Source: an uncultured virus (IMG/VR IMGVR_UViG_3300022555_000013) (Duplodnaviria; Heunggongvirae; Uroviricota; Caudoviricetes). From it: 20,000 bases of DNA. The notes under the pieces are model-generated. The model worked only from the letters and a program-made list of their open reading frames with translations. It was not told the DNA's origin and did not search any database. Positions 4,815 through 20,000 of this stretch are shown here, in pieces (the stretch's first letter is position 1; each line of letters opens with the position of its first letter). The stretch lies in the IMG/VR virus record IMGVR_UViG_3300022555_000013, one strand, 5' to 3'. Made by a program: the position numbers and the translations under genes.

Positions 4815-5531
4815 ATGAAATATCTAATTGGCATACAACCCACAGGAAAACTGCATATTGGAAACTATTTGGGTTGTATCTCAAAGGGGTTAAGATTGCA
4901 AAATGAAGGTCATGATGTGACATTCCTGATAGCAAATTATCACAGCCTTACCACAAATTCATTTTCACCAATAACAGAATTGGAATTAATAAAGCTTGGT
5001 TGTAAAAACATAATTCACCAAACTCCAGATTATACAGAGCTTTTCTTTAAATTGTGCTGCAAAATGAATCTTGGAATTCTTCAAAAAATGCCACAATATA
5101 AGACTAAAAAAGGTGAATATGACCTTGGAATCCTTCTATACCCAGTATTAATGGCTGCCGATATCATAATCAATAATCCAGACTTCATTATCGTTGGACG
5201 GGATCAGGTTCCACATATTGAGCTCACCAATGACATCGCTAAAAGAGTTGGAGTAAAAAAACATTTTAATTATGAATTTGGAGACGTTGATAAAATAATG
5301 TCACTGGCTGATCCATCAGTTAAAATGTCGAAATCTCTTGGAGAACGACATGTACTATATTTATTTGATGAAGATTTTCACAAAAAACTACGAAAAGCCG
5401 ATTCAACACCCGCTGGGATTGACAATCTTCGTAAAATAGGATCAATATTCGGTGTTGAAGAAACCGAAAGTAATTCTGATTATAAAAATAATTTGGCGAT
5501 TAAATTAACTAATTTCTTCCAAGGTGTTTAA
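4815..5531 (+). CDS. trpS: Tryptophanyl-tRNA synthetase, compact form
   Basis: GIQPTGKLHIGNY (HIGH), YPVLMAADI, VGRDQVPHIELT and KMSKS class I motifs characteristic of TrpRS; 238 aa. Confidence 0.92.
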   Translation: MKYLIGIQPTGKLHIGNYLGCISKGLRLQNEGHDVTFLIANYHSLTTNSFSPITELELIKLGCKNIIHQTPDYTELFFKLCCKMNLGILQKMPQYKTKKGEYDLGILLYPVLMAADIIINNPDFIIVGRDQVPHIELTNDIAKRVGVKKHFNYEFGDVDKIMSLADPSVKMSKSLGERHVLYLFDEDFHKKLRKADSTPAGIDNLRKIGSIFGVEETESNSDYKNNLAIKLTNFFQGV

Positions 5532-6078
5532 ATTTTTAAATAAAATAACAACCCATGGTCAGCAAAAACGAATATTAAAAGCTGCCTTGATCGGATTTCT
5601 TGCTGGTAATTTTATTATAGAAGCCCTAAAAATATGGTTAATTACTAAATACACTTGGAATAATTTTTTCGTCCATTCATTTATAACATTAAGTTTAGAC
5701 TACATATTAATACTCCCAGTTCTTATAAATATTGTCATAACTAAAAATAAATATGCCAATTTAATTAGTAAGATAAATAAGATGTATGATGAAGCTAAAG
5801 GAACATACCATAATGATGTTGGCTACGTATACCCAGATCAAAAAGATATAAAACCAATTGAAATAAGATCATTGTACGATTTCTCAGCATATTTAATACA
5901 AATTAAAAAGGGGGATTTATTTTATTGCTTTAAAGGTCCTGTTGATATCGTTGTAATAAGTGCATCTGGCGGTAATAATACAATATCCTATTATATCGAA
6001 GAATATATCAACAAATTCGAAATAACTGATTCATTAAAAGAAACCAGACTCAAAAAATTAAAGAAACTTAATAAATGA
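5524..6078 (+). CDS. Hypothetical membrane protein with RxxKLKKL tail
   Basis: Two hydrophobic segments; ends ETRLKKLKKLNK. Confidence 0.75.
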   Translation: MFKFLNKITTHGQQKRILKAALIGFLAGNFIIEALKIWLITKYTWNNFFVHSFITLSLDYILILPVLINIVITKNKYANLISKINKMYDEAKGTYHNDVGYVYPDQKDIKPIEIRSLYDFSAYLIQIKKGDLFYCFKGPVDIVVISASGGNNTISYYIEEYINKFEITDSLKETRLKKLKKLNK

Positions 6079-6431
6079 ACTCATTTCTAAAATTTAAAGA
6101 ATTTATTATTAAGGAAATTGAAGATGCTGGTGTAAGTGCTCCAGTAACTGAATTTACACTTACATCAGATATTAATCTTGATTCTCTGGATTGGATAAAC
6201 ATCCTAATGAATATTGAATTAAACTATGGTATAGCAATACCAGACGATATAGCCGAAGATATACTTGCCAAATCAAGTAGAATACTTGATGGTATGTATC
6301 TATTAGGTCAAAAATTCCCAAATGAAATACCAACAATAGCAATGGAAAGAAAAGAAAAATTAAAAAAAAATTCAAAAAAAATGAAATTTAATTTTTTTTA
6401 TATTAAAAAAGGTTTTACATTTGCAGAGTGA
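6075..6431 (+). CDS. acpP: Acyl carrier protein-like (phosphopantetheine site); true stop may be 6384
   Basis: DINLDSLDWINILMNIELNYGIAIPD matches the ACP DSL motif; removing one A from the A9 run gives ERKEKLKKIQKK-stop at 6382-6384. Confidence 0.8.
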   Translation: MNSFLKFKEFIIKEIEDAGVSAPVTEFTLTSDINLDSLDWINILMNIELNYGIAIPDDIAEDILAKSSRILDGMYLLGQKFPNEIPTIAMERKEKLKKNSKKMKFNFFYIKKGFTFAE

Positions 6432-6454: not shown

Positions 6455-6550
6455 GGCGGGGAATGCGGAAGGATTAGCAGAGATGTGACAAATAGCGGTA
6501 ACGCTGCAACTAAACTGATCGCTTCGGAGGTTCGAATCCTTCCCTCGCCA
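6455..6550 (+). ncRNA. tRNA-like RNA with acceptor stem and T arm but no recognisable anticodon arm
   Basis: GGCGGGG/CCTCGCC-A acceptor; GGAGG-TTCGAAT-CCTTC T arm; internal GATTAG/CTGATC helix and TAGCG-GTAA-CGCTG hairpin. Confidence 0.65.
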
Positions 6551-6592
6551 CAAAAAATTAAAAAAAACTTTGCTCAAAATTTTTTTTATAAC

Positions 6593-6642
6593 AAAAAAGG
6601 TTTTACATTTGCAGAGTGAAATTAAAGATACGTTCTTTGAAA
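6593..6642 (+). promoter_or_regulatory. Promoter copy 2 (TACATTTG) plus boxA-like GTTCTTTGAAA
   Basis: Exact 28-nt repeat of 6405-6432; boxA-like at 6632-6642 immediately before the GC-rich RNA. Confidence 0.75.
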
Positions 6643-6650
6643 CTTTGAAA

Positions 6651-7665
6651 ATACATGACGGCTCTTATCCTTTGATCGTAGCCACAGCCTCACCCGCCTA
6701 ATTAGCGGGGAAACGAATGTGAATCGGTGAAAACTGGTTCGGGAAAGAGTTCGGGGTGATATGGCAACTTATCATAGGTATGCCAAAAGCAAGAGCCGTC
6801 TCCCATTACAGGTTTGTAACACGGAAGCCTAACCAGCAGAAGGGTAAAGTAACCTGAGCGAAATTGATCGAAACTGGGCGGGTGGTACCGCAGAAGTCGT
6901 GATAAAGTACCTAAAAACATGACGAATGTGGTTCGGGGCGATCCCCACTGCGGCTCCTTCTGGGGCGGCATATGGTGCGGATACGCTCCCGACCCATCGT
7001 CCGAAACTGATGGGTTCGCAAGGGGGAGAGTTTGCCGCTGTCAAAATAGCGGGAACGCCCTTTGTCGCCCGTCACCAATCTACGGCAATACCGTGGGGGA
7101 GTTCTGATCCGACTTCGGTCGTGATCTTCGGGGCATATGAAATAAGATGCCACCGCCAGTTTTCCCCGCAGCCCGTAGTCGCCAGCGGATTTTATTCCGC
7201 TTTCAGGTGGGTCTGGGGAGCCGTCACGCACAGTCGTAAAACCTGTGCTGCCGACCCCCCGAATACCCGCCACAACCGAGAGATGGGGATGCCCTATAAA
7301 TTTAGGGCACTATATTACCCCGTCATGTATGTAGATGGTTTACCCAGTGGACTACCCGCAGGGGATCGACAAAAATGACCCGCATTCTTCGAGTATTTCC
7401 GACCCCATGGGATTCCGCCCCCGCACCAGCCAACCCGCTTGTTTTTGATATTTCCAAGTGGCATGGCATCCCCCGCAGTGGACAGTAGTCCAGCGGAGCA
7501 AGCATCGGGGCACCGACCCGCTGGGAGCCGTCAGGCAATCCGAAAGGGAGGGGTACATTTTTGAGGTTTGTACCCCTACTTTCGGTGCCAATCCAAGTCG
7601 GAATGCCGTCCGACAATTTTTAACCGATGGTGCGGGGGGTTGAGACACTCAATCCTCACGCCATC
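6651..7665 (+). ncRNA. Large (~1 kb) highly structured non-coding RNA, family unassigned
   Basis: Abrupt GC-rich island with no credible ORF; many GNRA/UUCG hairpins and perfect long-range helices (6657-6666/6791-6800; 6945-6953/7473-7481; 7285-7293/7465-7473; 7418-7428/7628-7638); own promoter and boxA; terminal hairpin followed by a T run. Confidence 0.8.
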
Positions 7666-7678
7666 AAATTTTTTTAAG

Positions 7679-7825
7679 ATGTGGACTCAAGACGAACAAG
7701 ATAAACAAGATCAAGAAAGACGAGACGAAATCGAAAAAGGTGGCTGGATCGCAGTAATTGCTGTTTTTACCATCGCTATAGTCATCTTTCTTGGAAAATG
7801 CGTTTGGTTTTTTTTCACAAAATAA
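7679..7825 (+). CDS. Small single-pass membrane protein
   Basis: MWTQDEQDKQDQERRDEIEKGGWIAVIAVFTIAIVIFLGKCVWFFFTK; ATG at 7679 preferred over the upstream start inside the ncRNA. Confidence 0.6.
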   Translation: MWTQDEQDKQDQERRDEIEKGGWIAVIAVFTIAIVIFLGKCVWFFFTK

Positions 7826-7835
7826 AAAAAATAAA

Positions 7836-7976
7836 ATGGGCGAAATTATATTTACAATTGTTAATAAAATTGATATTACAATATTTGTATTGTGCGTACT
7901 ACCAGTATTAGCAGTGAGTTTGCTAATTGTAAGTGTAATGAACACACCTAAAAACACAACTAAAATAAAAAAATAA
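7836..7976 (+). CDS. Small single-pass membrane protein
   Basis: MGEIIFTIVNKIDITIFVLCVLPVLAVSLLIVSVMNTPK..., A-rich start context. Confidence 0.55.
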   Translation: MGEIIFTIVNKIDITIFVLCVLPVLAVSLLIVSVMNTPKNTTKIKK

Positions 7977-8011
7977 TTGAAAATAATTGAAAATAATTTA
8001 AACTTTTTGAT

Positions 8012-8064
8012 TATATTTGCATAAATAGAAAAAACAGACCTTTTTTTATTAATATATAAAGGTC
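8012..8064 (+). promoter_or_regulatory. Promoter region of the tRNA array leader: TATATTTG plus AATATATA motif inside GACCTTT/AAAGGTC inverted repeat
   Basis: TAnnTTTG at 8012-8019; AATATATA at 8051-8058. Confidence 0.55.
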
Positions 8065-8171
8065 AAGAATTAAAAAAGGCTCGAAAGGGCATAGAGAAAT
8101 AGAAAGCCAAAAAAGCTAAAAATTAAGAAAAAGAAATCGGGGGTCGCAAAGCTCCCAAAACACGAAAAGTT

Positions 8172-8261
8172 ATGATGAGAATGAGTAAACATAGTAAGTC
8201 CTTTAAATTTTGGTCATCACATGATCAAGGTTCGGGTTTATTATGTCTTATTCTAAAATAA
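8172..8261 (+). CDS. Putative attenuator leader peptide MMRMSKHSKSFKFWSSHDQGSGLLCLILK
   Basis: 29-codon ORF containing the antiterminator strand GGTTCGGGTTT (8229-8239); codons 5-17 encode only S, K, H, F, W. Confidence 0.75.
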   Translation: MMRMSKHSKSFKFWSSHDQGSGLLCLILK

Positions 8262-8280
8262 CTAAAATTTTAGATTACCG

Positions 8281-8318
8281 CAAAAAACCCGAACCCAACA
8301 GTTCGGGTTTTTTGTTTT
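8281..8318 (+). terminator. Intrinsic terminator (attenuator) upstream of the tRNA array
   Basis: CAAAAAACCCGAAC (8281-8294) / GTTCGGGTTTTTTG (8301-8314) perfect 14-bp inverted repeat with U tract. Confidence 0.85.
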
Positions 8319-8319
8319 G

Positions 8320-8330
8320 GTTCTTTGACA
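8320..8330 (+). promoter_or_regulatory. boxA-like antitermination element GTTCTTTGACA
   Basis: Same motif at 6443, 6632 and 19825; resembles rRNA-operon boxA. Confidence 0.6.
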
Positions 8331-8381
8331 TATTGATTTAAAAAATTGCATTCACTGGAATCCAATTCCAGTGAATGAAAT

Positions 8382-8459
8382 GCGTCTGTAGCTCAGATGG
8401 TAGATAAAAGCACCGCTCTTTTAAAGCGGGGGTCGACAGTTCGAACCTGTCCAGACGCA
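8382..8459 (+). tRNA. tRNA-Lys(UUU), enlarged D loop
   Basis: GCGTCTG/CAGACGC; CCGCT-CTTTTAA-AGCGG; GACAG-TTCGAAC-CTGTC. Confidence 0.9.
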
Positions 8460-8464
8460 CAAAT

Positions 8465-8547
8465 ACGGCAGTAGGCATTGGTAAGCCCAGCAGTCTCCAA
8501 AACTGTAACCCGAAAGGGTCTTAAGCGTTCAAATCGTTTCTGCCGTG
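8465..8547 (+). tRNA. tRNA-Trp(CCA) with long variable arm
   Basis: ACGGCAG/CTGCCGT-G; GCAGT-CTCCAAA-ACTGT; variable hairpin ACCC-GAAA-GGGT; AAGCG-TTCAAAT-CGTTT. Confidence 0.85.
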
Positions 8548-8552
8548 CAAAT

Positions 8553-8641
8553 GGAAGATGAAGCTGGCGTTGGGCTGGTCACGGTTTTGAAAACCGAGGG
8601 TACGGGTTAAACCGTATGGGAATCGTGCTCTCCTTCTTCCG
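8553..8641 (+). tRNA. tRNA-Ser(UGA), atypical D and T loops
   Basis: GGAAGA/TCTTCC-G; CGGT-TTTGAAA-ACCG; long variable arm TACGG/CCGTA. Confidence 0.75.
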
Positions 8642-8642
8642 C

Positions 8643-8716
8643 TGGGATTAAAGAATACATCCAGCAAATTAAAAAACTTGTTCTGAAAACACAAACCAAA
8701 ACGTATTCTGTTCCCA
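8643..8716 (+). ncRNA. Small hairpin RNA with CAGCAA bulge and a Phe-like anticodon loop (CTGAAAA)
   Basis: TGGGA..AGAATAC / GTATTCT..TCCCA closing helix; TTGT-T-CTGAAAA-C-ACAA inner stem-loop. Confidence 0.45.
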
Positions 8717-8722
8717 AAATTT

Positions 8723-8807
8723 GGAGGTTCCCAGTTGGTGTGGTATACCGCCTCGAAAGCGGTGAAATCAATAAAATGATGTTAGAGATCGTCACTCTAA
8801 ACCTCCG
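8723..8807 (+). tRNA. tRNA-Ser(CGA), atypical D and T loops
   Basis: GGAGGTT/AACCTCC-G; ACCGC-CTCGAAA-GCGGT; TAGAG-ATCGTCA-CTCTA. Confidence 0.75.
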
Positions 8808-8816
8808 CAAACTAAT

Positions 8817-8904
8817 GGAAGCGTACCCAAATGGTAAAGGGGGCAATTTGCTAAATTGTTAGGACGGTAATTCCGTTGCGTGAGTTCGAACCTCACCGTT
8901 TCCT
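8817..8904 (+). tRNA. tRNA-Ser(GCU)
   Basis: GGAAGCG/CGTTTCC; GCAAT-TTGCTAA-ATTGT; long variable arm; GTGAG-TTCGAAC-CTCAC. Confidence 0.9.
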
Positions 8905-8912
8905 CTAAATAT

Positions 8913-8986
8913 GGCGTTATTAGATAATGGTAGTCGGTCACACTGTGGATGTGTTCATGATATCGGTTCAACTCCGATATAACGCC
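8913..8986 (+). tRNA. tRNA-His(GUG)
   Basis: G-1 plus GCGTTAT/ATAACGC-C73; CACA-CTGTGGA-TGTG; ATCGG-TTCAACT-CCGAT. Confidence 0.85.
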
Positions 8987-8991
8987 CAAAT

Positions 8992-9076
8992 ATGGAAGTA
9001 GTTTAACTGGTAAAACACCGCTCATCGAGGGCGGAGAGTGTCAGTACCAAAAAAGGTTCGAACCCTACCTTCCATA
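8992..9076 (+). pseudogene. Degenerate tRNA-Arg(UCG)-like gene
   Basis: ATGGAAG/CTTCCAT; D arm intact; CCGCT-CATCGAG-GGCGG (A33 instead of U33); T stem interrupted by a CCAAAAAA insertion. Confidence 0.55.
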
Positions 9077-9089
9077 CAAATTTTTAAAT

Positions 9090-9180
9090 GGTGATTGTAG
9101 TTCCGTAATTGGTAGCGGGCCTGACTGTGAATCAGGTGAGCGGAAGCTCCTTGCGAGATCGTACCTCGTCTTTCACCCCA
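9090..9180 (+). tRNA. tRNA-His(GUG) with long variable arm and encoded CCA
   Basis: CCTGA-CTGTGAA-TCAGG; variable hairpin GAGC-GGAA-GCTC; GCGAG-ATCGTAC-CTCGT; acceptor with mismatches. Confidence 0.7.
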
Positions 9181-9184
9181 AAAT

Positions 9185-9255
9185 GCGGTTGTAGCTGAGT
9201 AGGTTAGCACTGGCGTGAAGCCCCAGAGACATCGGTTCGATCCCGATCATCCGCA
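9185..9255 (+). tRNA. tRNA-Phe(GAA) with atypical anticodon loop
   Basis: GCGGTTG/CATCCGC; CTGG-C-GTGAAGC-C-CCAG; ATCGG-TTCGATC-CCGAT. Confidence 0.7.
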
Positions 9256-9263
9256 CAAAAAAC

Positions 9264-9359
9264 GGGGAAGATACCTCACAACTTTGGAAAGTGGGGGATA
9301 ATCTGGAAAGATTATATGCAGCAAAATCAAACAAATTGGTTCGATTCCATTCTTCCCCA
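9264..9359 (+). ncRNA. tRNA-like element (acceptor and T arm; two internal TGGAAA hairpins)
   Basis: GGGGAAG/CTTCCCC-A; TGG-TTCGATT-CCA; ATAATCT-GGAA-AGATTAT hairpin; no canonical D or anticodon arm. Confidence 0.55.
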
Positions 9360-9364
9360 CCTAT

Positions 9365-9439
9365 GGTCTGGTAGCTCCTAACTGGTAGAGCAAGGGACTG
9401 AAAATCCCTGTGTTGGCGGTTCAAATCCGTCTCAGACCA
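9365..9439 (+). tRNA. tRNA-Phe(GAA)
   Basis: GGTCTGG/TCAGACC-A; AGGGA-CTGAAAA-TCCCT; GGCGG-TTCAAAT-CCGTC. Confidence 0.95.
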
Positions 9440-9444
9440 CAAAT

Positions 9445-9530
9445 GGAAGTTTGACAGAGTTTGGTAATGTGCCAGTTTGGAAGACTGAGTCGGGGTAAAA
9501 CCTACGGGGGATCAAAGCCCTCAACTTCCG
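9445..9530 (+). tRNA. tRNA-Ser(GGA)
   Basis: GGAAGTT/AACTTCC-G; CAGT-TTGGAAG-ACTG; long variable arm; GGGGG-ATCAAAG-CCCTC. Confidence 0.8.
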
Positions 9531-9590
9531 CTAAAAATATTAAAGTCGTATTTTTTTATTTATATATAGTAAAAAGATACGACCATTAAT

Positions 9591-10490
9591 ATGAAAAAAA
9601 TATGTGAAAATTGTAATCAAGAATATGAAACAAATCAAAGTAAATCTAAATTTTGTGAAAAAAAATGTAGACTAATTTTTCATAAAAAGATAAGCCCATC
9701 AAATAATGAAAGTGAAAATATATTAAAATGGTCGAAGAAATTAAAAGCTATTAATTTACTTGAAAATAAATGTAAAATATGTGGAGATGATAATATATTT
9801 CATTTAATATTTCATCATAAAGAAAATAATAAGGTATATAAAATAGCTGGTATTTGGGATAAAAGATGGAGTGATATAAAAAAAGAAATAGAAAAATGTG
9901 AACTGCTATGTGAAAATTGTCATAGAGAAAAACACTATAATGAAAAAGAATATGAAAGTAGAAGAAAAACAAAAGAAATTATAGTTAATTATAAAGGTAA
10001 TAAATGTGAAATTTGTGGATATAATAAAAGTTTAGCAGCACTAATATTTCATCATAAAGATAAAAATAATAAAAAATATGAAATTGGTAAAATAAACATA
10101 AGAGTTGATAACTTGCAGCAATTAAATGATGATGTTATGCTTGAAATAGATAAATGTGAATTATTATGTTCAAATTGCCATCGTGAAAAGCATGCAAGCA
10201 ATATTAATTTAGAAAAAATATTGAATAAATCAGAAATATACAAGGAGCAAGGTAAAAAAATTGATAAAAATATGATTTTCAAATTATATTTTGAAGATAA
10301 CAAAAAGATAATTGAAATATCAAAAATATTAAATTGCTCTAAAAGTAGTATAAGTGAGATTATTAAAGAAGAAAAGATTAAAAAATTAAAATATACAAAA
10401 GTCTTTTCAAGTCCCCAAAAAGGAACGGTAACTGACGAAAAGTCCCATCGTAGGTTTGAATCCTACTTGGCGCACAAACGGGTTCTGTAG
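9591..10490 (+). CDS. Free-standing HNH homing endonuclease-like protein with tandem HNH domains and C-terminal HTH
   Basis: Two repeats of CxxCG...FHH...KCELLCxNCHRExH; N-terminal CxxC; IIEISKILNCSKSSISEII HTH-like; much lower GC than flanks. Confidence 0.85.
   Translation: MKKICENCNQEYETNQSKSKFCEKKCRLIFHKKISPSNNESENILKWSKKLKAINLLENKCKICGDDNIFHLIFHHKENNKVYKIAGIWDKRWSDIKKEIEKCELLCENCHREKHYNEKEYESRRKTKEIIVNYKGNKCEICGYNKSLAALIFHHKDKNNKKYEIGKINIRVDNLQQLNDDVMLEIDKCELLCSNCHREKHASNINLEKILNKSEIYKEQGKKIDKNMIFKLYFEDNKKIIEISKILNCSKSSISEIIKEEKIKKLKYTKVFSSPQKGTVTDEKSHRRFESYLAHKRVL
10450..10474 (+). pseudogene. 3' remnant of a tRNA (T arm plus acceptor 3' strand)
   Basis: GTAGG-TTTGAAT-CCTAC-TTGGCGC-A with no matching 5' half upstream. 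Confidence 0.55.
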
Positions 10491-10581
10491 TGCAAGTGGT
10501 AGCACAGTTGTAAACCAGAAAAGTGTTGGGGAAACCCAAATTATAAAACAAAATGAGTGGGTTCAAGTCCCACCAGAACCC
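10480..10581 (+). ncRNA. tRNA-like element with intact acceptor, D and T arms but expanded, non-canonical anticodon region
   Basis: GGTTCTG/CAGAACC; GTGC-AAGTGGTA-GCAC; GTGGG-TTCAAGT-CCCAC; internal TTGGG-GAAA-CCCAA hairpin. Confidence 0.6.
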
Positions 10582-10585
10582 CTAA

Positions 10586-11098
10586 CTAACAAATTATTTC
10601 AGTCAAAGCGGTTTCATCATTAGGTGCTGTATTGTTTCCCCCATGATAAAAATTCAATTCAAATTCCAATTTAGAATCTTTTAAATTGTTATCTATTTCA
10701 GCCTGACCAATATTAGAGCATGAAAAATAATATTTGTTGTTTTTGCTTTCAATTTTACAGTCATAAATAACGCCAGATATAAAATCACCCATTTCAACAC
10801 TTACATGCTGCCCTGTATTTGTATCATATGCGTAAGCAAATAGTTTAAAATGGTTTTTAAAAATGAAATTTGGCACCCATCCTAATCTCCAGCTATTTTT
10901 ATGATGATTGAAACCAAATCCGATGCCAACAAGTTTATTTATATCATAATCGTCACTATTTCTTGTTGGGCTCCACCAGCAGTTGTCATCTAATTTAAAT
11001 TTAACTGACCAAAGGTTTTTATTCCAATGCATTCTAAACAATGACAACCAAGCAAATTGGCAATAATGATTACCTTTTTTTATAGTGTATTTCTTCAT
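10586..11098 (-). CDS. Hypothetical protein (beta-rich), inverted within the tRNA array
   Basis: 170-aa ORF with TAATATATA motif just upstream. Confidence 0.8.
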   Translation of the reverse strand: MKKYTIKKGNHYCQFAWLSLFRMHWNKNLWSVKFKLDDNCWWSPTRNSDDYDINKLVGIGFGFNHHKNSWRLGWVPNFIFKNHFKLFAYAYDTNTGQHVSVEMGDFISGVIYDCKIESKNNKYYFSCSNIGQAEIDNNLKDSKLEFELNFYHGGNNTAPNDETALTEIIC

Positions 11099-11122
11099 TT
11101 TTTAATTGTATATATTAAAAAT

Positions 11123-11193
11123 ACGAGTGTAGCACAATGGTAGTGCAGCGGTCTCCAAAACCGCCTATGGAGGTTCAATCCCTTCCACTCGTA
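11123..11193 (+). tRNA. tRNA-Trp(CCA)
   Basis: ACGAGTG/CACTCGT; GCGGT-CTCCAAA-ACCGC; GGAGG-TTCAATC-CCTTC. Confidence 0.93.
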
Positions 11194-11212
11194 CCGCAAA
11201 TCATATTTTATT

Positions 11213-11285
11213 GACCTCGTAGCTTAATTGATAGAGTAACTGGCTTTTAACCAGTGGGTTCTGGGTTTGAGTCCCAGCGGGGTCA
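11213..11285 (+). tRNA. tRNA-Lys(UUU)
   Basis: GACCTCG/CGGGGTC; ACTGG-CTTTTAA-CCAGT; CTGGG-TTTGAGT-CCCAG. Confidence 0.9.
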
Positions 11286-11357
11286 CTTCGGGTCGCCAGA
11301 TTGTTATATTTTCATAGGGCATGCACCCCTTCAAGCAGGGTCCATAGAAAATAGATT

Positions 11358-11430
11358 GGGTTCGTATCACAATTGGTAGTGAAACTGTCTCTTAAACAGT
11401 GCTATAAGGGTTCAAATCCCTTTGAGCCCA
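11358..11430 (+). tRNA. tRNA-Lys(CUU)
   Basis: GGGTTCG/TGAGCCC; ACTGT-CTCTTAA-ACAGT; AAGGG-TTCAAAT-CCCTT. Confidence 0.92.
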
Positions 11431-11449
11431 CAAATTTTTTAAATCAATA

Positions 11450-11776
11450 TTACAGGTCAAATTGCTTGGTACTTTTTCTTCTACCTTTTAGTAAGTTGTA
11501 TTCCCTTAAAGTTTCTTCAGTTGGCGGATACCCAAATTCGTTTCTATTTCTATCGCAGCAATACAATTTGAATGATGGTTTATCGTGAGCTGGTTCAGAT
11601 ATTGTTATATCCCAAATTCTAATAGTTTGACCAATATCATCAATGATATCAGCCCATTGCGGTGTTGGATTAATAATTTTATATGTTTTTCCAATTGTAA
11701 ATTCCCAACCATTTTCAGCATCTAAGCAGATAACGGATTCCCCAATTTCTTCGAATATTTTAAAGTTAGTAATCAT
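11450..11776 (-). CDS. Hypothetical protein with MITNFKIFEE N-terminus
   Basis: 108-aa ORF; divergent TATATA motifs at 11781-11809. Confidence 0.75.
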   Translation of the reverse strand: MITNFKIFEEIGESVICLDAENGWEFTIGKTYKIINPTPQWADIIDDIGQTIRIWDITISEPAHDKPSFKLYCCDRNRNEFGYPPTEETLREYNLLKGRRKSTKQFDL

Positions 11777-11813
11777 GCTCTATATATAATTTTCAAATTT
11801 TATATATACTTAA

Positions 11814-12272
11814 ATGATAACAAAATTTTTATTGTTTGAAGAAAAAAATGAATTTCAAACAGCAACTTTTGATAATTTGCCATTAGATTACCAAATAGGA
11901 TTAATGACATATATGTATGAGGGGAAACCTGTTGAATGGTCTATTAATGATAGTGTGGATTGGGTTAATGATATAGGCAAGATAAAAATACTTATTGCAG
12001 ATTACTCTAAAGTGTATGGAAATAAAAAATTTAAGTTTGGTTTATACAAAACTCAAAAACTAATAAATAAAGTTATAGATTGTCTGGGTATAGATGATTG
12101 GAAAGAATATCATGATTCATATATGAGTACTAATAAAGTTAATTATACAGATACTATTTATCCAGTAATTGTTAATAATGAAAATGATGAATTTATAGAA
12201 GATGGGTGGCACCGTTTTCATTATTATATTCATCGTGGATATGATTCAATCCCTGTAATTTTTTTAAATTAA
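11814..12272 (+). CDS. ParB/Sulfiredoxin-like nuclease-fold protein with MITKFLLFEE N-terminus
   Basis: YPVIV...FIEDGWHRF...GYDSIPVI matches the ParB-N DGxHR motif. Confidence 0.65.
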   Translation: MITKFLLFEEKNEFQTATFDNLPLDYQIGLMTYMYEGKPVEWSINDSVDWVNDIGKIKILIADYSKVYGNKKFKFGLYKTQKLINKVIDCLGIDDWKEYHDSYMSTNKVNYTDTIYPVIVNNENDEFIEDGWHRFHYYIHRGYDSIPVIFLN

Positions 12273-17855: not shown

Positions 17856-18302
17856 ATGAAAATGGAAGAAAATATCAACATTGACATTAAAAATGCAATG
17901 ATTGAAAAAAATGAGGTTAAATTAGAAGCCCTCAGGACTATTAAAACTTCTATCCAGACAGAAAAAGCTAAAGAAGGCACAGAGCTTTCCGATGAGCAAG
18001 TTATTAAATTGATTCAAACGCTTGTCAGTAAAAGGACCGAATCTGTCACCCAATACACTCAAGGTGGAAGACCAGACTTGGCTGATCATGAAAATGATTT
18101 GATTGCAATATTCAAATTATATCTTCCTGAACAGTTAAGCGAATCGGAAATTGAATCGAAGGTTAAGGAAATTATTGCAACTCTTGGTGCCACATCCATT
18201 AAAGATATGGGTAAGGTAATGACTGCTGCTAATGCTGAATTTACTGGGAAAGCCAATCCAAAAAGTGTTGGAATGATTGTTAAAAACCTTTTAAGCAAAT
18301 AA
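17856..18302 (+). CDS. yqeY: GatB/YqeY domain protein
   Basis: DIKNAM...LEALRTIKT...KRTESVTQYTQGGRPDLA..E...YLPEQLSE.EI...GATSIKDMGKVM...GKA is the classic YqeY pattern. Confidence 0.92.
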   Translation: MKMEENINIDIKNAMIEKNEVKLEALRTIKTSIQTEKAKEGTELSDEQVIKLIQTLVSKRTESVTQYTQGGRPDLADHENDLIAIFKLYLPEQLSESEIESKVKEIIATLGATSIKDMGKVMTAANAEFTGKANPKSVGMIVKNLLSK

Positions 18303-19781: not shown

Positions 19782-19835
19782 AAAAATGAGTTTTTTACTT
19801 TAATATATAGTATTTATAGTTGATGTTCTTTGATA
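19782..19835 (+). promoter_or_regulatory. Phage-type promoter AAAATGAGTTTTT-n-TAATATATA followed by boxA-like GTTCTTTGATA
   Basis: Near-identical motif on the minus strand at 421-450 upstream of the 1-402 gene. Confidence 0.6.
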
Positions 19836-20000
19836 TAGTGGTTGTTAGATAAAAACTTATCTAACGTAAAATCAAAAAAGTAAAAACAGTGGTTTGAAAC
19901 ATAATCATAACTAATTTTAGATTTTATAGGGAGCCGTACTCCCGAATTAACGCTTTTGGAGATTATGTAAGACATTTAAACTTAACTTGTTAAGTGAATA

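Follow-up and report, generated by a model that had tools for sequence, protein, structure and literature searches.

Leader-peptide attenuators of transcription are known from enterobacteria, where they include trp, his, leu and pheA, the thr leader with its Thr and Ile codons, and the ilvGMEDA leader with its Ile, Val and Leu codons. The pheST attenuator of E. coli (pheM leader) controls phenylalanyl-tRNA synthetase and reads a single amino acid, and the T-box riboswitches of Firmicutes, found on synthetase and amino-acid genes, bind an uncharged tRNA without the ribosome, one tRNA each. To our knowledge, the leader-peptide attenuators described up to now regulate either amino-acid biosynthesis or synthetase genes. 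We analyzed a stretch of 20,000 nucleotides from an uncultured virus of the Caudoviricetes (IMG/VR record IMGVR_UViG_3300022555_000013; "the window" hereafter means this whole stretch), in which a short leader open reading frame (ORF) at 8172-8261 and an intrinsic terminator at 8281-8320 are followed, unlike in the described cases, by tRNA genes. As judged from its sequence, this locus probably carries a ribosome-mediated transcription attenuator of the trp type placed before tRNA genes, and represents one module of a genome-wide set.

The phage unit resembles the enterobacterial leaders by its short ORF with a cluster of regulatory codons, its four pairing segments, its intrinsic terminator, the use of several amino acids per leader, and a terminator more stable than the antiterminator, which implies kinetic control. 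It differs from them in that it would regulate tRNA genes, whose product acts directly on the sensed step, in that the phage leaders would read up to five or more amino acids with several synonymous codons for each, and in that phages bear it, with many copies in a genome and each copy fitted to its own tRNA block. With pheST it would share leader-peptide control of a component of the translation apparatus in response to the level of charged tRNA, but pheST is cellular, reads one amino acid and acts on a synthetase instead of tRNA genes. The likeness to the T-box lies in transcription attenuation that measures the state of a specific tRNA through a codon-like specifier; the T-box model had no hit in 7500-12000 at E <= 1, and none at gathering threshold in the window. 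Rfam leader families gave no match at gathering threshold in the window: the best one, Thr_leader (34.7 bits for a cut-off of 55), covered the terminator only, and Leu_leader (24.5 bits for a cut-off of 50) lay on the opposite strand.

The tRNA sets of T4, T5 and mycobacteriophages replace host tRNAs lost to anticodon nucleases; the accounts of these sets treat tRNA function and not a sensing device controlling tRNA transcription. We also considered the tRNA-Phe genes pheV and pheU of E. coli, Phe being one of the amino acids of the present leader, as possible bearers of an attenuator-like leader, and rejected them: the K-12 genes lie about 10 bases behind a plain promoter, with neither leader ORF nor terminator. 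The stress-induced long tRNA array of Anabaena (PMC8421152) is a spare tRNA operon whose expression goes up under translational stress; its main text lacks the terms leader, attenuat-, terminator and uORF and describes no mechanism with a leader peptide. The full-text literature searched outside subscription journals and supplements, and the passages searched in PMC3082878 and PMC2965389, gave no report of tRNA genes controlled through a leader peptide.

The core of the locus is organized as follows.

8172-8261, plus strand: leader ORF, 29 codons and a stop, with in-frame ATGs at 8172, 8175 and 8181
8178-8254, plus strand: hairpin of the ORF (segments 1:2, anti-antiterminator), control codons paired with the antiterminator strand
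8184-8222, plus strand: control codons (segment 1), codons 5-17, 13 codons for Ser, Lys, His, Phe and Trp only
8229-8239, plus strand: antiterminator strand (segment 2), inside the leader ORF and directly 3' of the control codons
8281-8320, plus strand: intrinsic terminator (segments 3:4 and T run), 5' arm 8281-8294, loop 8295-8300, 3' arm 8301-8314
8382-9531, plus strand: proximal tRNA block, ten genes called by ARAGORN and Rfam, namely Lys-UUU 8382, Trp-CCA 8465 (long variable arm), Ser-CGA 8723, Ser-GCU 8817, His-GUG 8914, a UCG-anticodon tRNA 8992, His-GUG 9091, Phe-GAA 9185, Phe-GAA 9365 and Ser-GGA 9445

The terminator stem (8280/8281 to 8314/8315) has 14-15 pairs and a 6-base loop and is followed by the T run, and the 11 bases of 8229-8239 are perfectly complementary to 8285-8295 in its 5' arm. 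An earlier note on this DNA, drawn from the sequence letters, had put forward the leader ORF, the 14-bp terminator and the 11-base antiterminator complement, and all three were borne out where it had placed them. It had also pointed to the 13 control codons of five amino acids, with a chance of about 1e-8, and this was confirmed. The control stretch contains Ser 5 times, Lys 3, His 2, Phe 2 and Trp 1; Ser is spelled AGT, TCC and TCA, and Lys both AAA and AAG. The long ORFs of the window and its relatives comprise 23411 residues, of which these five kinds together represent 0.247; 13 of them in a row would accordingly be expected with a chance of 1.3e-8, a post-hoc figure. As a control of run length, six sources (112,516 bases) were translated in all six frames: the longest runs of the five residues were 14, in the homologous leader of the relative L001, and 13, in the leader of the window, the next one being 9.

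ARAGORN called 11 tRNAs in the array with default settings, 13 at a relaxed threshold and one more with introns allowed, and Rfam tRNA matches agreed. Lys, Trp, Ser, His or Phe is the identity of 12 of the 13 array tRNAs, and leader codons cover 8 of the 9 distinct array anticodons. This correspondence depends on the reading frame, codons cognate to the array numbering 13/28 in frame 0 of the leader against 7/28 and 5/28 in the two other frames. Contigs from four lake-metagenome runs carry copies identical to the window over the leader and hence without informative variation. In a few short contigs of diverged relatives (from metagenome runs X5 and X6; only the loose ends of these contigs are visible), 8184-8216 is kept with at most one change and both flanks differ. 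The conservation of this 33-base core hints at a selection on the codons themselves, synonymous sites included.

Relatives were reached through a gene of the window resembling tryptophanyl-tRNA synthetase (TrpRS): four IMG/VR contigs and the 735-kb phage LR756501.1 (L010). An automatic scan retained terminators located at most 1.5 kb 5' of a tRNA and preceded by a small ATG-ORF ending at most 90 bases before them. We obtained 14 leader-terminator units, 12 of which entered the main tests. Four scanned terminators were not counted: L006 4942 terminates the gene of a 62-residue cold-shock-like protein, L003 12691 has no ORF, and at L004 9164 and L006 4073 the short ORFs are unrelated to the next tRNA. 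L002 was dropped as a duplicate of L003, and L005 contains one tRNA and no unit. The leaders of the relatives include the following (strand given where minus); those after the first line are not homologous to the leader of the window and are spelled in the amino acids of their own blocks.

L001 6538-6633, L003 7141-7248 and L010 9657-9752: leader ORFs homologous to that of the window, before Trp/His/Phe/Lys/Ser blocks
L004 934-1005: five Lys codons with AAA and AAG alternating, before five Lys tRNAs (Lys-UUU, Lys-CUU)
L006 2062-2205: seven Leu among eight codons, 5 of the 6 Leu codons used, before five Leu tRNAs with four anticodons
L010 21991-22059: Leu-rich leader, before a Leu tRNA block
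L006 5805-5873: twelve consecutive Val/Tyr/Asn/Ile/Asp/Cys/Lys codons, before a block of exactly these seven isotypes
L007 2673-2753: Ile/Glu/Met/Gln run, before a Glu/Met/Gln/Ile block
L003 11414-11488: Ser/Arg run, before an Arg/Ser block
L008 5981-6064, minus strand: Ile/Ala/Gly run, before an Ile/Gly/Met/Ala block
L009 10058-10147: Ser/His/Asn/Phe/Thr run, before a Phe/Ser/Asn/His/Thr block
L004 5003-5134: 43-codon leader, before a mixed block of 20 tRNAs

The match between leaders and blocks was compared with shuffled pairings. Over 12 units, the fraction of amino acids of the whole ORF matching its own block is 0.47 (0.249 +/- 0.036 in shuffled pairings), the codon-anticodon match with wobble is 0.409 (0.194 +/- 0.034), and the sum of maximal-segment log-odds, a score corrected for the size of the amino-acid set of each block, reaches 210.4 bits (66.7 +/- 17.7); none of 200000 permutations attained any of these values. 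The own block ranks first for 10 of the 12 leaders, and the two others, both of them homologous five-residue leaders, obtain a slightly better score with a sister block. Conversely, among 609 small ORFs (20-50 codons, six frames, nine sources), the true leader ranks first or second for its block in 10 cases out of 12, and 12th and 18th in the rest. Over all 14 units, the fraction of distinct array anticodons having a cognate codon in their own leader is 0.904, compared to 0.541 +/- 0.064 after shuffling (0/100000), and cognate codons amount to 158/403 in frame 0, against 72/403 and 65/403 in the other frames. The match thus belongs to the reading frame and does not stem from base composition. 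It extends to the choice of synonymous codons: blocks with Ile-UAU have ATA in the control run, and the block with Ile-GAU has ATT.

All 14 units have an in-frame ATG and a frame that stays open through the antiterminator up to the stop. The homologous leaders of the window, L001, L003 and LR756501.1 share their five-residue composition but not the order of the residues, and the peptide sequence is poorly conserved. The short conserved core of segment 2 is read in a different frame in the window than in L001 and L003, which indicates that it is conserved as RNA and not as peptide. The comparison points to a selection on RNA pairing in segment 2 and on codon identity in the control stretch. Between the window and L001 there is a difference of one extra C in the 5' arm of the terminator, which goes with an extra G both in the antiterminator strand and in the 3' arm. 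Unrelated leaders have wholly different antiterminator/terminator pairs that are nevertheless complementary, and an exact-pattern scan of viral contigs for the pair of the window gave 0 matches. The earlier note had proposed two comparisons among related huge phages, of leader codons with array anticodons and of antiterminators with terminators: the codons do co-vary (12-14 units) and compensatory change is seen.

The leader holds all four segments of the classical model, which can pair either as 1:2 and 3:4 or as 2:3. Because the paired segments aligned too poorly in a MAFFT alignment of five leaders for counting pairs column by column, pairing was judged by duplex energies against shuffles and swaps. 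The antiterminator duplex of the window has an energy of -19.2 kcal/mol, compared to -9.6 +/- 2.3 in dinucleotide shuffles of the ORF, none of 500 being as good. An antiterminator above chance was observed in 10 of 12 units (0-16 of 500 shuffles better), and own pairs average -16.0 kcal/mol against -10.2 for swapped ones. The hairpin at 8178-8254 reaches -28.7 kcal/mol (z = -5.9, 0/200 shuffles as stable; z = -6.5 in a repeat), and an ORF hairpin is significant in 9 of 14 units. These energies, together with the anatomy and the co-variation, support the leader-peptide attenuator architecture that the earlier note had outlined. We also modelled the switch on a transcript cut before the 3' arm of the terminator, with a ribosome masking 30 bases. 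In this truncated-transcript model the 5' arm is paired at about 0.9 when the ribosome stands on any codon through the end of the control stretch, and at about 0 when it stands over 8223-8250. Most other units present the same drop of pairing, located at the end of the control stretch.

Several elements are found around the leader, upstream of it and between the terminator and the first tRNA.

8012-8019, plus strand: candidate promoter, a match to the Bacteroidetes-type -7 box, about 150 bases 5' of the leader start
8023-8064, plus strand: conserved A/T-rich element of the 5' untranslated leader, bounded by a 7-base inverted repeat
8321-8335, plus strand: 15-base motif just 3' of the terminator
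8349-8377, plus strand: hairpin with 13 perfect pairs, 3' of the terminator and 5' of the first tRNA

Similar -7-like boxes lie 20-165 bases 5' of 10 of 12 leaders in the relatives, and the leaders are preceded by A-rich start contexts without Shine-Dalgarno. Positions 8023-8060 are 85% identical to L001 6453-6490, and the A/T-rich element also occurs 5' of the leaders L006 5805 and L007 2673, between the promoter box and the start codon. The copy of this element in the contig G001 starts with ATG and looks like a mini-ORF; that of the window has no ATG. In 9 sources the 15-base motif has 17 matches at up to 2 mismatches, each of them on the strand of the RNA gene next to it. Four are in the window (8321-8335, 6633-6647, 19826-19840 and 5720-5734) and the 13 others in L001, L004, L006, L007 and L009, and nearly all lie just before or between tRNAs, or before a GC-rich RNA candidate. 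The motif may serve as a processing signal or belong to a promoter. The hairpin at 8349-8377 is skipped in one lake-metagenome contig, which joins 8338 to 8381 through four other bases; it is therefore either inserted or dispensable.

Some results weigh against an attenuator of this kind. The antiterminator is not above chance in two of the 12 units (L004 934-1005, 222/500 shuffles better; L008 4353-4439, 90/500), and the ORF hairpin is not significant in 5 of 14. When the full-length leader is folded at equilibrium with the ribosome mask, the terminator is kept at every ribosome position with a probability of 0.96-1.0; since it always wins at equilibrium, the switch must be kinetic, as in the trp operon. 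In the truncated RNA of the window without translation, the antiterminator pairing 2:3 is favoured (0.98), so that an untranslated transcript might read through unless 1:2 forms first. With the ribosome on the stop codon, neither segment 2 nor segment 3 is masked, and termination then relies on the re-forming of 1:2 or on steric exclusion. The motif at 8321-8335 could belong to a second promoter. Finally, all units come from one phage clade and several are homologous, so that the 12-14 units represent about nine independent leader types.

Other points of the same kind concern the array. The earlier note had limited it to Ser, Lys, His, Phe and Trp tRNAs, which holds for 12 of the 13 called tRNAs; the one at 8992-9077 has the anticodon UCG, that of Arg. 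This tRNA, whose long variable arm resembles that of Ser tRNAs and whose position 33 is an A, is the sole one without a cognate codon in the leader, contrary to the claim that every array anticodon has one. It may serve as a decoy or in recoding, or be a gene in decay. The note had also counted as intact a Ser-UGA tRNA, for which the candidate is the stretch ~8553-8640; neither ARAGORN nor the Rfam tRNA model calls it, its single match is to tRNA-Sec (17 bits, E = 5.5), and it combines a plausible anticodon stem-loop and variable arm with a poor T arm. The two TCA codons of the window are matched only by this doubtful, uncalled stretch.

From the anatomy, the codon-match statistics, the co-variation and the alternative pairings described above, we infer the following course of translation, of its kinetics and of the direction and size of the response. 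Transcription would start at the Bacteroidetes-type promoter near 8012-8019, and the 29-codon leader would be translated while the RNA polymerase proceeds. As long as charged Ser, Lys, His, Phe and Trp tRNAs are ample, the ribosome would cross segment 2 (8229-8239), which would pair again with segment 1 behind it; the terminator 8281-8314 would then form and the transcript stop before the tRNAs. If any control codon is decoded slowly, the ribosome would stall on segment 1 and free segment 2, which would capture 8285-8295 before the 3' arm is made and allow read-through into 8382-9531. The tRNAs produced would relieve the stall, a negative feedback holding the decoding capacity for those codons at a set level. 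Such a feedback would be indifferent to its cause, whether a high demand of the phage, a loss of host tRNAs or a nuclease, and would operate as an OR gate with inputs from five amino acids and no fewer than eight isoacceptors. In the clade of huge phages, each isotype-sorted tRNA block would have its own codon-matched leader.

More tentatively, the huge Bacteroidetes-type phages may possess a modular, genome-wide controller of decoding capacity, with one OR-gate per block, the ribosome as a multiplexed sensor, and leaders that sample, at the level of isoacceptors, exactly the codons read by their blocks; through it the host tRNA pool would be replaced on demand, for example after its destruction by the phage or by host defence. 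Such a controller would be the first instance of leader-peptide attenuation acting on tRNA genes. The attenuator, if true, would link a regulatory element directly to the tRNAs that it controls, in a way readable from sequence, and would account for the sorting of huge-phage tRNA genes into isotype blocks. It would also show a way for a virus to gauge and correct the decoding capacity of its host, and would provide a compact natural sensor of individual tRNA supply for laboratory use. Whether phage tRNAs are made constitutively or only on need becomes a testable question.

The alternative that survives best keeps the same device and changes the reason for its selection: it would be a counter-defence switch, delivering replacement tRNAs when PrrC, PARIS AriB or similar systems destroy host tRNAs. 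Lys tRNAs are known nuclease targets, and the feedback logic would react to a depletion of this type. Several array tRNAs moreover have unusual bodies that might escape nucleases: the D arm of Lys-UUU 8382 contains an insertion, and Trp 8465 and His 9091 each carry a long variable arm. We nevertheless consider this origin rather unlikely. In the relatives the device precedes blocks for nearly all amino acids, and its presence before Leu, Glu/Gln/Met/Ile, Gly/Ala/Ile, Arg/Ser and other blocks makes a general controller of supply likelier than an answer to particular anticodon nucleases; in addition, no defence or anti-defence gene was identified beside the device.

The spacing between terminator and tRNAs bears on a second alternative, in which the small ORF and the terminator would be a unit of their own, either a micropeptide gene or the 3' end of a transcript coming from upstream, and the tRNAs would have their own promoter 3' of the terminator. 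In the window, 67 bases including the conserved motif 8321-8335 separate the terminator from the first tRNA, which would suit such a promoter. In 6 of 14 units, however, the first tRNA begins only 10-32 bases past the terminator, a gap without room for a promoter, so that the tRNAs of these six units are reachable only by read-through. Independence would also leave unexplained the frame-specific codon match over about nine leader types and the complementarity of the 3' part of the ORF to a terminator arm, and a micropeptide fits poorly with a peptide sequence that varies while its composition is kept. This explanation is improbable.

Still less credible is a sensor without ribosome, T-box-like or sponge-like, whose codon triplets would pair directly with the array anticodons and thereby shift the balance between terminator and antiterminator. 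Leader triplets are complementary to the anticodons by definition, and T-box leaders do read tRNA by codon-anticodon pairing; yet every unit has its in-frame ATG and open frame, the match is limited to this frame, Rfam yields neither a T-box nor another riboswitch, and no structure like a platform for the elbow or the acceptor end of a tRNA is seen. Chance, i.e. an AT-rich small ORF that happens to precede a terminator, could call upon the frequency of the five residues in AT-rich genomes (0.247) and the post-hoc choice of the pattern, but it is all but ruled out by the permutation tests, in which 0 of 100000-200000 permutations reach the observed values, and by the recurrence of the pattern with other residue sets before other blocks.

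We then return to the attenuator and to the extent of the array that it would control. The following features complete the array.

~8553-8640 and ~9262-9361, plus strand: uncalled tRNA-like stretches within the proximal block
9591-10490, plus strand: HNH-endonuclease-like ORF (299 aa, Pfam PF01844, E = 2.6e-5) inserted in the array
10481-10581, plus strand: 101-base tRNA with a 36-base insertion in the anticodon loop (Rfam 44.2 bits; ARAGORN in intron mode only)
11123-11431, plus strand: distal tRNAs Trp-CCA, Lys-UUU and Lys-CUU, behind an opposite-strand ORF (10586-11098)

The earlier note had placed all downstream tRNAs in the controlled array. The distal tRNAs lie behind both the HNH ORF and the opposite-strand ORF and are for this reason probably outside the gated unit; a scan for ORFs and terminators found no leader ORF or terminator upstream of them. 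The gated unit is probably 8382-9531, the distal tRNAs forming a separate one. The 3' end of the HNH ORF overlaps a T-arm/acceptor-like remnant and the 101-base tRNA (10440-10581), and in L003 a GIY-YIG-like ORF occupies the equivalent place. The HNH ORF in the array suggests a traffic of homing endonucleases through tRNA genes.

The TrpRS-like gene used to reach the relatives (4815-5531) encodes a short class-I TrpRS/TyrRS homologue of 238 aa (PF00579, E = 9e-37). Its nearest named relatives, 66-73% identical, belong to uncultured huge phages of 735 kb and 642 kb (LR756501-3), and five IMG/VR contigs carry the gene at 63-71% identity. The Trp-CCA tRNA at 8465-8548 is found near this gene; its long variable arm is unusual for a tRNA-Trp and is kept in L001 (6712-6795). 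The 238-aa protein and the long-arm tRNA may constitute a synthetase-tRNA pair private to the phage. DNA nearly identical to the window occurs in freshwater and lake metagenomes, and a DNA search of named phages with 7900-9600 gave tRNA matches only. The promoter boxes and the starts without Shine-Dalgarno are compatible with a Bacteroidetes host.

Three further observations concern regions outside the array. A YqeY-like protein (PF09424, E = 4e-43), whose domain is linked to tRNA-dependent amidotransferases, is encoded at 17856-18299, 6 kb from the array. The region 6640-7650, about 1 kb with 46-56% G+C in a genome of about 30% G+C, contains no convincing ORF, matches nothing in Rfam and lacks a counterpart in the relatives retrieved; it sits 3' of a duplicated promoter-like repeat of about 27 bases (~6405-6431 and ~6594-6620) and of a copy of the tRNA-flank motif, and may be a large structured RNA. 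Behind the first of these repeats lies a 99-base tRNA-like RNA (6455-6553), called neither by ARAGORN nor by Rfam, which lacks normal D and anticodon arms and has a 7-pair acceptor stem and a canonical T arm.

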